IMG/VR virus record: IMGVR_UViG_3300029288_003766
Coordinates: 25,787 to 89,786 of that record
Direction: 5' to 3' (one strand)
Length of the DNA: 64,000 nucleotides
Origin: a virus
Lineage: Duplodnaviria; Heunggongvirae; Uroviricota; Caudoviricetes
In this document: positions 33,064 through 34,117 of the stretch, in pieces
Position numbering within the stretch: position 1 is the first letter of the stretch
How the letters are laid out: the number at the start of each line of letters is the position of its first letter
Notes under the pieces: generated by a model
Told to the model about the DNA's origin: nothing
Database searches by the model: none
The model's input: only the letters and a program-made list of their open reading frames with translations
Position numbers and translations under genes: made by a program

Positions 33064-33173
33064 TCTGTGGCGAGTAGGCGTTAAAATTGGTCGAGGAACC
33101 TAAGAGCCTCGTAAGCTTGATTCAATGTCTCGCTGCTACCAATTGCTGAAGGCGGGTTCACTGAAAACCACAG
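33064..33173 (+). ncRNA. structured RNA candidate E3 (possibly an elaborate terminator)
   Basis: CTGTGG (33065-33070) pairs with CCACAG (33168-33173) and is followed by TTTTTT. Internal TCGAGG/CCTCG helix. 5' CTGTGGCGAG resembles the E1/E2/E4 motif. Confidence 0.35.
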
Positions 33174-33199
33174 TTTTTTAAAAACATAGGAGAGGTAAA

Positions 33200-34117
33200 A
33201 TGAGCTATCTATCAATAGATAATTTATATAAAGACCAAACGATTCTAATGTTCAAACGCGTATATGCTATGGAGAAGATCCACGGCAGTTCGGCACACAT
33301 ATCTTTCAATAAGGTGGAGAAAAAAAGTATACCTTATAACGAAAAAATACAAGACTTTGAAAATAATGTAGTTAGTGAGGCCATGTACACTGTAAAATTC
33401 TTCTCTGGGGGCGAAAAGTATGAAAACTTCACCAAAATCTTCAATGAACAATTTCTTATAGATAAATTTAAGGAGATGGGTGTTGATAATATGGTAATAT
33501 ACGGAGAGGTCTATGGTGGTAAATGCCAAGGCATGTCCGCAACCTATGGTAAGGATATGAAGTTTGTGGCCTTTGAAGTTAAGATAGGAGATAGTTGGCT
33601 GTCTGTTCCTCAGGCCGATGGGATAGTAAAACAGTTTGGGTTAGATTTTGTCCATTATGAGGAAGTAGACACCAATATAGAAACTCTTAACAGACTTTGC
33701 GAAGCCGATTCGGTCCAGGCCGTAAGAAATGGTATATGTCCAGGCAAACTAAGAGAAGGAATTGTTCTAAGGCCGCTTATTGAATTAAAGAAGAATAACG
33801 GTGAAAGAATCATTGCCAAACATAAGAATGATAAGTTTAAAGAAACCACCAAGAAGAGAGAAATCTCACCTGATAAGTTTGAGATCTTGACCAAAGCCAA
33901 TGAGATAGCTGATGAGTGGTGTACTGAAATGAGATTAAGTCATGTATTGGATCAATTCCCAGATGCTGATATTACCAAAACAGGAGAAGTAATAAAAGTG
34001 ATGATAGATGATATAATAAAGGAGGGGAAAGATGAGATAGTAGATAGCAAGGAAGCTCGAGCAGCAATAGGCAAGAAAACAGCTATGATGTTCAAACGAA
34101 GAATCACAAAACTATAG
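33200..34117 (+). CDS. ATP-dependent RNA ligase, Rnl2 family
   Basis: Motif I EKIHGS, motif III IYGEVYGG, motif IV FEVKIGD, motif V EGIVLRP and a downstream IIAKHKNDKF block track the T4 Rnl2 nucleotidyltransferase motifs. Confidence 0.85.
   Translation: MSYLSIDNLYKDQTILMFKRVYAMEKIHGSSAHISFNKVEKKSIPYNEKIQDFENNVVSEAMYTVKFFSGGEKYENFTKIFNEQFLIDKFKEMGVDNMVIYGEVYGGKCQGMSATYGKDMKFVAFEVKIGDSWLSVPQADGIVKQFGLDFVHYEEVDTNIETLNRLCEADSVQAVRNGICPGKLREGIVLRPLIELKKNNGERIIAKHKNDKFKETTKKREISPDKFEILTKANEIADEWCTEMRLSHVLDQFPDADITKTGEVIKVMIDDIIKEGKDEIVDSKEARAAIGKKTAMMFKRRITKL

Follow-up and report, generated by a model that had tools for sequence, protein, structure and literature searches.

ATP-dependent RNA ligases of the Rnl2 type seal nicks that carry 5′-phosphate and 3′-hydroxyl ends and, to our knowledge, the natural in vivo substrates of these and of Rnl5-type ligases are still unknown. 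The subject here is an RNA element of about 115 bases encoded directly ahead of an Rnl2-type ligase gene (33200-34117) in a 64,000-nucleotide (nt) stretch of phage DNA, positions 25,787 to 89,786 of IMG/VR record IMGVR_UViG_3300029288_003766, which is called the window below. Its genomic setting recalls that of the bacterial Y RNAs YrlA and YrlB of rsr-yrlBA-rtcBA RNA-repair operons (PMC4201824, PMC7790460), as each is a structured non-coding RNA, sometimes in tandem, whose ends form a long helix and which lies in an operon beside a ligase gene. However, a tRNA-like module is missing from the window element and a Ro60/TROVE protein from the window, the ligase beside the element depends on ATP and is not RtcB, and there is no sequence or covariance-model similarity to the Rfam Y RNA families. 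In architecture the element resembles pseudoknotted aptamers (SAM-II/V, preQ1-II/III, fluoride) and tandem riboswitches, with about 100 nt, a pseudoknot core, many invariant junction bases, a site in the 5′ untranslated region just upstream of the Shine-Dalgarno (SD) sequence and, in one case, a tandem arrangement, but its family is without an Rfam match, a conserved terminator or SD-sequestering platform, or a common downstream function. The small ribozymes twister, pistol, hatchet and hammerhead (for which a pseudoknot core, a scatter among phages and tandem copies are typical) share with it their size, a pseudoknotted conserved core and a sense-oriented, sometimes tandem, scatter between phage genes, though the element matches none of their Rfam models. 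It is thus like pseudoknotted aptamers and small ribozymes in architecture and like Y RNAs in genomic logic, and has the defining features of none. What comparison of its homologues shows is a conserved, strand-specific, pseudoknotted RNA fold.

The lead to the family was the pilin gene 5′ of the element and not the ligase gene 3′ of it. One non-identical relative of the pilin, 55% identical, lies on a 1.9-kb ENA contig (L008), and in the 267-nt spacer there the window element has two diverged counterparts in tandem. Blocks conserved among these three copies served as exact-match patterns for scans, which found copies on three IMG/VR contigs (L025, L135, L136) and, in one scan of a metagenome collection, a further copy (L206). 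The family accordingly has 7 sequences on 6 contigs, a count that is biased to close relatives by the exact matching and is best read as at least 7 copies. (The 5′ motif alone, used as a pattern, gave about 115 mostly chance matches, one of them true.) Relaxed patterns brought no further members from IMG/VR, and a scan of 185,579 GTDB genomes gave no member but only false matches, apparently in malate-dehydrogenase genes as judged by eye; blastn against GenBank phages gave no match to the element. The ligase gave no such lead: its closest relatives (65%, 64% and 48% identical) have no spacer upstream of the gene, a scan of IMG/VR with it found nothing, and one with the L025 ligase recovered that ligase alone. 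A literature search with the conserved strings brought up unrelated primers and no paper containing the strings.

The features of the window copy, numbered in the window and all on the plus strand, are as follows.

33058..33180, + strand: whole structured RNA element, supported by covariance model R1 and homologues
33065..33070, + strand: 5′ strand of the outer helix P1, CUGUGG, pairing with 33168-33173
33071..33076, + strand: 5′ side of the P1 internal loop, CGAGUA (AGUA/GAA pattern, from sequence comparison)
33078..33084, + strand: junction GCGUUAA, invariant in 7/7 copies; its G33078 also pairs with C33161, closing P1
33085..33091, + strand: 5′ strand of P3, AAUUGGU, pairing with 33138-33144
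33092..33111, + strand: variable hairpin P2, CGAGG...CCUCG, from manual inspection
33124..33128, + strand: junction AAUGU, its AUGU part invariant
33129..33133, + strand: 5′ strand of P4, CUCGC, pairing with 33152-33156
33134..33137, + strand: UGYU linker, in which G33135-C33146 and C33136-G33145 lengthen the P4 hairpin
33138..33144, + strand: 3′ strand of P3, ACCAAUU, within the P4 hairpin loop and pairing with 33085-33091
33145..33151, + strand: RCUGAAG, invariant, including the UGAA bulge
33152..33156, + strand: 3′ strand of P4, GCGGG, pairing with 33129-33133
33157..33160, + strand: junction UUNA (here UUCA) between P4 and P1, in 6/7 copies
33163..33167, + strand: 3′ side of the P1 internal loop, GAAAA, from sequence comparison
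33168..33173, + strand: 3′ strand of P1, CCACAG, pairing with 33065-33070
33174..33179, + strand: T6 run after P1, conserved in no homologue

The copies have a common plan. Their 5′ half is made up of P1, GCGUUAA, the P3 5′ strand (AAUUGGN), one or two unrelated hairpins and (A)AUGU, and their 3′ half of the P4 5′ strand (5 nt), UGYU, the P3 3′ strand (NCCAAUU), RCUGAAG, the P4 3′ strand, UUNA and P1. P3 and P4 cross, the 3′ strand of P3 being placed inside the hairpin loop of P4, and the core is therefore a pseudoknot, of 7 and 5 base pairs (bp); seen in another way, P4 is a hairpin that pairs through its 8-nt loop with an upstream strand. All 7 pairs of P3 are formed in all 7 copies, with compensatory changes at 3 of them, and so are all 5 pairs of P4, with compensatory changes at 4. 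The Y of UGYU and the R of RCUGAAG also covary (C-G in 3 copies, U-A in 4) in a way that cuts across both subfamilies. At the P2 position every copy has a hairpin, of unrelated sequence. The first-pass annotation of this DNA had proposed a long-range helix CTGTGG/CCACAG, and this helix is upheld as the closing stem P1 by its covariation in homologues, GUGG/CCAC being replaced by GCGA/UCGC and by GGGG/CCCC. What chiefly marks the element, its pseudoknot together with the invariant bases of the junctions, had been overlooked there.

In a six-sequence alignment the 20 pairs of the structure are 93% paired, and sliding the 3′ partners by 1-3 columns lowers this figure to 23-47%; 12 of the 20 have changed on both sides. 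The 14 core pairs of the same alignment (P3, P4 and the 2-bp P4 extension) are 100% paired, 8 of them with compensatory changes, and none of 500 shuffles reached their covariation score. Overall, the slid-partner controls gave 13-52% paired against 93-100% for the structure, with double changes in P1, P3, P4 and the P4 extension; these percentages are somewhat inflated, because the structure was derived from the same sequences, whereas the compensatory changes and the match to the held-out L136 copy (below) are unaffected by this. P1 and the extended P4 hairpin, including its invariant UGAA bulge, also came out independently from RNAalifold, which is unable to predict pseudoknots. About 45 bases are invariant in the family, some 30 of them unpaired, and this, together with the covariation across divergent contigs, rules out chance. 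P1 and P4 include G-U pairs that on the other strand would be A-C mismatches, and all copies are co-oriented with the genes that flank them (6/6 loci), so that the structure is one of the sense strand and of RNA.

P1 divides the family. In the subfamily formed by L135 and L206 it is a plain helix of 9-12 bp abutting GCGUUAA. Only the four ligase-linked copies (the window copy, both L008 copies and L025) carry an internal loop in P1 of the AGUA/GAA type, with 5′-(G)AGUA(R)-3′ opposite 5′-GAA(A)-3′ (AAAA in L025). By pattern, and set against the consensus of the motif, this loop is presumably akin to the ‘bulged-G’ motif of loop E and the sarcin-ricin loop, which is a common module for protein docking or tertiary contacts. 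The L136 copy diverges at its 3′ end and is perhaps degenerate.

The covariance model R1 scores the window element (33058-33180) at 116 bits (E=1.4e-27, this and the other R1 E-values being rough because calibration was shortened), and its next best match elsewhere in the window has 12 bits and E=0.75, so that there is one copy. Built from six sequences, it detects the seventh, the held-out L136 copy, at 33 bits (E=3.5e-5), and in 0.86 Mb of unrelated loci it gives no spurious match below E=0.4. The element had been thought to share a 5′ motif with three other structured elements of the window. This does not hold: apart from the single R1 match, CTGTGGCG and AGTAGGC occur at chance frequency, and the 18-mer from the element's 5′ end is found once at up to 3 mismatches.

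Taken from its own sequence, the element would not have stood out. CTGTGG (33065-33070), CCACAG (33168-33173) and T6 (33174-33179) are all present. However, when the 139-nt intergenic spacer is dinucleotide-shuffled, 23% of the shuffles contain a perfect long-range helix of 6 bp or more; T6 runs occur at 0.6 per kb, and the CTGTGG/CCACAG helix encloses 97 nt. The minimum free energy (MFE) z-score is −0.09, and single-sequence folding of either strand is no better than that of shuffles; a terminator and promoter scan calls no site at 33064-33180. Judged singly, helix and T-run are thus not above chance, and it is the homologues alone that validate the helix; the proposal of a structured upstream region stands on the comparative data and not on the single-sequence fold.

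None of the Rfam 15 covariance models reaches its gathering score anywhere in the window. With the limit relaxed to E=10, no Rfam match overlaps the element in the copies of the window and of L135, and the L008 copies have only matches to models of small nucleolar and long non-coding RNAs at E of 7 or more, taken as chance. With no match in Rfam, among tRNAs, in GenBank phages or in GTDB genomes, this structured RNA family is, as far as these searches reach, previously uncatalogued. A large-scale prediction in IMG/VR has listed 8495 unnamed candidate structured RNAs, with no ligases in its main text (PMC10690425), and the family could be among them as three of its members are on IMG/VR contigs.

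Several familiar kinds of RNA were considered for the element and set aside. ARAGORN at default settings finds no tRNA, intron-containing tRNA or transfer-messenger RNA at 33064-33173; with permissive settings (90-164 noise calls) the matches listed pass from 32613-32784 to 34142, and none among them lies over the element. A small peptide starting at the conserved AUG is contradicted by in-frame stops after 1-5 codons in 3/7 copies and by the lack of an SD sequence. Against a pseudoknot that acts in stop-codon readthrough or frameshifting, a UAA follows eight codons past the pilin UGA, and the L135 and L206 copies are not close behind an open reading frame (ORF). With group I intron cores the element shares a P3/P7-like topology, yet it lacks a P8 and falls well short of their size.

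The genes next to the element, and the SD sequence between it and the ligase gene, are given here.

32704..33060, + strand: pilin-like gene with a prepilin N-terminal methylation motif (Pfam N_methyl)
33188..33195, + strand: SD sequence AGGAGAGG of the ligase gene, identified from sequence and beginning 14 nt past the 3′ end of P1
33200..34117, + strand: Rnl2-type ATP-dependent RNA ligase gene, 305 amino acids (PF09414, T4 Rnl2 motif alignment, AlphaFold model, Foldseek); nucleotidyltransferase domain at about residues 1-215, all-helical C-terminal domain at about 222-305

The element is fitted tightly between genes. The pilin stop codon is 4 nt ahead of P1, too close for the RNA to have a separate promoter, and an upstream stop codon within about 6 nt of P1 is common to the window, L008 and L025. 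At the other side, in 5/6 loci, an SD sequence begins 11-14 nt past P1 and the start codon lies 19-26 nt past it. The order in the window is Band7, pilin, RNA and Rnl2-like ligase. In L008 it is Band7, pilin, the two RNA copies and then an ORF for an OB-type (PHA02142) ligase, which over its first 84 residues shares 70% identity with that of L025. In L025 a phosphoribosyltransferase gene and a ligase gene (PHA02142 OB domain and PF09414) come first; some 6 nt past the stop codon of the ligase the RNA begins, and it is followed by two small ORFs and a gene for a GIY-YIG endonuclease. The RNA thus adjoins an RNA ligase gene in 3/6 loci, with two ligase architectures, twice upstream of the gene and once downstream. 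The L025/L008-type ligases belong with Rnl5 (DraRnl/NgrRnl, TIGR02306, N-terminal OB, PHA02142), which like Rnl2 is nick-sealing and has a PF09414 nucleotidyltransferase domain but which has an N-terminal OB domain instead of the C-terminal helical domain; identity to the window ligase is 26% and confined to the nucleotidyltransferase domain. In the remaining loci the RNA is between a VRR-NUC gene and small unknown ORFs (L135), ahead of an HNH-like protein gene recognised by sequence pattern (L206), or not near any ORF start (L136). The description of the element as a leader of the ligase gene, given in the first-pass annotation, therefore fits the window and L008, but in L025 the RNA is downstream, in L135 and L206 unrelated genes follow it, and it is absent from the nearest ligase relatives.

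Two loci that have a ligase but not the RNA are instructive in other ways. L268 is 72% identical to and syntenic with L025. Its ligase and radical-SAM genes are adjacent, whereas in L025 they are separated by an insertion of about 1.45 kb (L025 2245-3718 against L268 4182-4195) composed of the RNA, a pair of small ORFs and a gene for a GIY-YIG (LEM-3-like) endonuclease, which hints that the RNA may be able to travel with a homing-endonuclease cassette. L371 (Joint Genome Institute (JGI) 3300012931, Ga0153915_10625922) encodes an Rnl2-like ligase 62% identical to that of the window, and directly upstream of it, at 110-181, has a degenerate tRNA-like sequence with a CUA (amber-reading) anticodon; this scores 24.5 bits with the Rfam tRNA model (gathering score 29, E=0.0026), and ARAGORN makes no call.

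The reading preferred here, to which we give a probability of about 0.45, is that the element would be a cis-acting module, regulatory or processing, in the operon transcript. It would be transcribed within the operon mRNA and would work as RNA, with the approximately 30 invariant unpaired bases forming a binding pocket or active site (conservation in junctions rather than in helices is the usual signature of one or the other). Positioned between cistrons, the module would, by occupancy with a ligand or protein or by cleavage, set the fate of the cistron starting 19-26 nt downstream, which here is the ligase, and the loop-E-like motif in P1 of the ligase-linked copies could be a protein docking site, plausibly for the ligase. 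A functional tie to nick-sealing ligases is favoured: the adjacency to ligase genes, with the loop-E-like motif only in the copies concerned, suggests coupling to these enzymes as regulator, docking site or substrate. The lack of relation among the downstream genes and of any conserved expression platform argues against a classical metabolite riboswitch, for which one gene class and an expression platform would be looked for and heterogeneous genes without conserved terminator or anti-SD pairing were found, and favours a general control or processing element recognised by protein or ligand, or a self-cleaving RNA.

A number of observations weigh against a cis-acting module tied to ligases. No ligase is present in the flanking DNA examined of L135, L136 and L206, and the RNA is absent from eight related ligase loci (L001, L002-5, L006, L268, L269, L270, L371 and L372), which include the nearest relatives of each of the two ligase types. 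The genes downstream of it are unrelated, encoding two ligase types, a 70-residue membrane-like ORF, a 97-residue unknown ORF and an HNH-like protein, with none in L136. There is no conserved expression platform, and the SD sequence takes part in no conserved pairing. The ligase association rests on about two independent lineages, since the window and L008 are syntenic relatives and the family is one of only 7 sequences on 6 contigs, and joint transfer of RNA and ligase could explain part of it, since the L008 and L025 ligases are 70% identical. The link between RNA and ligase is thus suggestive and not obligatory.

Part of the same evidence could be read differently, with the element an excised, stable small RNA that acts in trans with nick-sealing ligases as their client, cofactor or decoy. 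This we consider unlikely, though its logic has precedents in Y RNAs beside rtcB and in tRNA genes beside repair enzymes: the RNA might, for instance, be cut by a host ribonuclease and then resealed, or might recruit the ligase. Such an RNA could well adjoin two ligase architectures in both relative orders, and the tandem copies of L008 are comparable to yrlB-yrlA, a loop-E-like motif of the protein-binding type is present only in the ligase-linked copies, the degenerate tRNA-like gene occupies the equivalent position upstream of the L371 ligase, and P1 joins both ends as it would for a discrete RNA. In the ligase-linked loci, however, it would be without its own promoter or terminator, neither Rfam nor the permissive ARAGORN matches listed show a tRNA-like module, the window lacks Ro60/TROVE, and half of the loci have no ligase nearby while the closest ligase relatives have no RNA. 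A new small self-cleaving ribozyme, cutting polycistronic mRNA between cistrons, is quite unlikely. Its size of 110-150 nt, the pseudoknotted core with about 30 invariant unpaired bases, the phage-only distribution in unrelated gene contexts, the tandem copies and the RNA end-joining enzymes nearby would all suit a ribozyme, and the heterogeneity of contexts tells against a metabolite riboswitch; but the element resembles no Rfam ribozyme model even at E up to 10, and products ending in 5′-hydroxyl and in 2′,3′-cyclic phosphate groups would not be direct substrates of Rnl2- or Rnl5-type ligases.

The slightly slimmer prospect that the element is cargo or a cis element of a mobile homing-endonuclease cassette, its adjacency to ligases reflecting insertion-site preference or hitch-hiking, derives from the L025 insertion relative to L268, with its RNA, two ORFs and GIY-YIG endonuclease, from the HNH-like pattern of the gene downstream in L206 and from the patchy distribution among related phages. 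It has to contend with the absence of an endonuclease within 9 kb of the window element and next to the L135 copy, and does not account for the strong purifying selection that bears on the junction bases and the pseudoknot. That nothing more than a leader, a terminator hairpin or a fortuitous inverted repeat precedes the ligase gene is scarcely credible. A T6 run does follow the CCACAG arm, as had been pointed out, the folding energy is no better than that of shuffles and 23% of these have a 6-bp long-range helix, but the T-run is absent from 6/6 homologues, the terminator scan calls no site and no compact hairpin, the helix spans 97 nt, and the covariation and the approximately 45 invariant bases across divergent contigs are considered to have refuted this explanation already. 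The run itself thus stands and an intrinsic terminator is rejected.

The family is a new one within a known kind, that of conserved structured phage RNAs; that it is also new in function, as a ligase-coupled RNA, we think improbable but a genuine chance. Doubtful to a like degree is a new RNA class, catalytic or binding a ligand or protein, that would be deployed by phages with nick-sealing ligases. One form which such a class could possibly take is an RNA cut, by itself or by a host ribonuclease, in its helix-clamped core and resealed by the neighbouring Rnl2- or Rnl5-type ligase. Were this so, phages would have a sensor, decoy or switch built on RNA breakage and repair, and nick-sealing ligases would gain a dedicated, genetically linked RNA partner. 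The presence of the RNA beside two ligase architectures is a testable lead to the in vivo substrates of Rnl2- and Rnl5-type ligases. Even if the ligase link is incidental, there is a new candidate class of riboswitch, ribozyme or protein-binding RNA that is small enough for biochemistry and structure determination. The RNA is the valuable part of the locus, to which the ligase alone adds little.

The ligase assignment itself, made earlier from motifs I, III, IV and V, proved correct. The ORF at 33200-34117 matches Pfam RNA_ligase PF09414 (E=3.5e-11) and PHROG 548 ‘RNA ligase’ (3e-27). With NCBIfam TIGR02307, the Rnl2 family, it scores 44.1 bits against a cut-off of 197, over model positions 5-290 of 326, and is therefore a member of a distant Rnl2-like clade and not an equivalog. 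T4 Rnl2 (gp24.1) is the only solved relative found by sequence search, the match spanning motif IV, motif V and the C-terminal domain (in phmmer, residues 170-283 align with T4 Rnl2 187-305). When T4 rnlB, taken from NC_000866, was aligned with the window ligase and members of its clade, the nucleotidyltransferase motifs I, III, IIIa, IV and V were all in place, with E25-K26-I27-H28-G29 of motif I (K26, the motif I lysine, corresponding to T4 K35), G102-E103 of motif III (E103 to T4 E99), F122/F125 of motif IIIa, E186-G187 of motif IV (E186 to T4 E204), K207/K209 of motif V (T4 K225/K227) and the C-domain pair R245/D271 (T4 R266/D292) invariant. An AlphaFold (AF2) model from 22 homologues has a predicted local distance difference test (pLDDT) score of 87.6 and four helices at 224-304, so that the two-domain layout with an all-helical C-terminal domain is that of T4 Rnl2. 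Foldseek with this model places T4 Rnl2 (2HVR/2HVQ) first in the PDB, over the full length and with E of about 1e-12, followed by the Rnl2 adenylyltransferase domain, trypanosome REL1 and Naegleria Rnl5; the best PDB match is thus the same by sequence and by fold. The differences from T4 Rnl2 are an identity of only about 23% and some 30 residues (roughly 37-65) inserted after motif I and before motif Ia, an addition that many clade members do not have. The clade is large and mostly metagenomic, with more than 2600 relatives. Conservation of the N-terminus MSY..NLYK in homologues, together with the SD sequence, identifies the ATG at 33200 as the true start; for an identical ligase (L007 1702-2550, protein P0001) the JGI automatic call starts at M24 and gives 282 residues, the true start being 23 codons upstream. 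By motifs and modelled fold, this is a genuine and complete, though distant, Rnl2-type RNA ligase for which nick sealing is predicted.

The phage is AT-rich (37% GC), and the window covers its early and replication region. Dispersed in it is an RNA-repair set recognised with Pfam, RtcB at 1120-2427(−), cREC_REC at 4483-4761(−), RlaP at 20920-21879(+) and Thg1 at 25554-26258(+), so that the Rnl2-type enzyme is, as had been claimed, a second RNA ligase in addition to RtcB. Jumbo phages have been described that combine RtcB with Rnl1- or Rnl2-type ligases, RlaP, cREC and Thg1 (PMC7824862), and because the same multi-ligase set is already known from there, the ligase half of the finding is ordinary. 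Pfam further identifies genes of metabolism and modification (NAPRTase, adenylosuccinate synthetase, three DNA methylases) and of replication and recombination (DnaB, primase, UvsW, clamp loader, gp32, RecA). ARAGORN finds no tRNA genes across the 64-kb window. Homing-endonuclease-like genes, at least four of them, are scattered through it; one, a GIY-YIG/NUMOD gene (23586-24455), has 108-nt tandem repeats at 24024-24229, a related copy of which is present at 47779-47837 in a second endonuclease-like gene (47304-48056).

The ligase gene sits in a block of membrane- or envelope-type genes (31476-35508, plus strand) that is unusual for a phage and encodes SPFH/Band7, the protein with the prepilin N-methylation motif, LemA, a small lipoprotein-like ORF and a TPM-domain protein. 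Next to it, at 35505-36052 on the plus strand, are two adjacent small ORFs with near-identical glycine-rich tails (GGGFGGFGGG...GGASGGF), the DNA under which is an 80-nt direct repeat with 73% identity.

Other non-coding stretches of the window are also structured or repeated. A GC-rich spacer of 149 nt (61612-61760, plus strand) between the gp32-like (60685-61611) and RecA/UvsX-like (61761-62837) genes folds into several hairpins closed by a long-range helix UAGGCUG...CAGCCUA, with an SD sequence directly after; its MFE is −42.6 kcal/mol (z=−2.84, with 3/200 shuffles folding as well), and it has no Rfam or GenBank phage match. Another stretch, the 463 nt at 48582-49044, has no convincing ORF and is overlapped only by a minus-strand ORF of 117 residues without a family match. 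Its GC content is 40% against 37% for the window, a long closed structure is formed by roughly the first 110 nt, and GUAAG-like repeats are present in the 3′ part; there is no credible Rfam match (best E=1.4), and overall z is −0.86. Neither these two nor the GC-rich stretch 16201-16270 are members of the pseudoknotted RNA family. Finally, a 57-nt direct repeat occurs in four copies (15020-15076, 36393-36449, 44331-44387 and 59609-59665) with the approximate consensus AAAAATCATAATTTTTTCCTACTTCCCAGCTATTATATAGTAGGA. All are intergenic and ahead of plus-strand gene blocks, and with the small inverted repeat CCTAC...GTAGG inside it the sequence looks like a phage-specific promoter or regulatory box.

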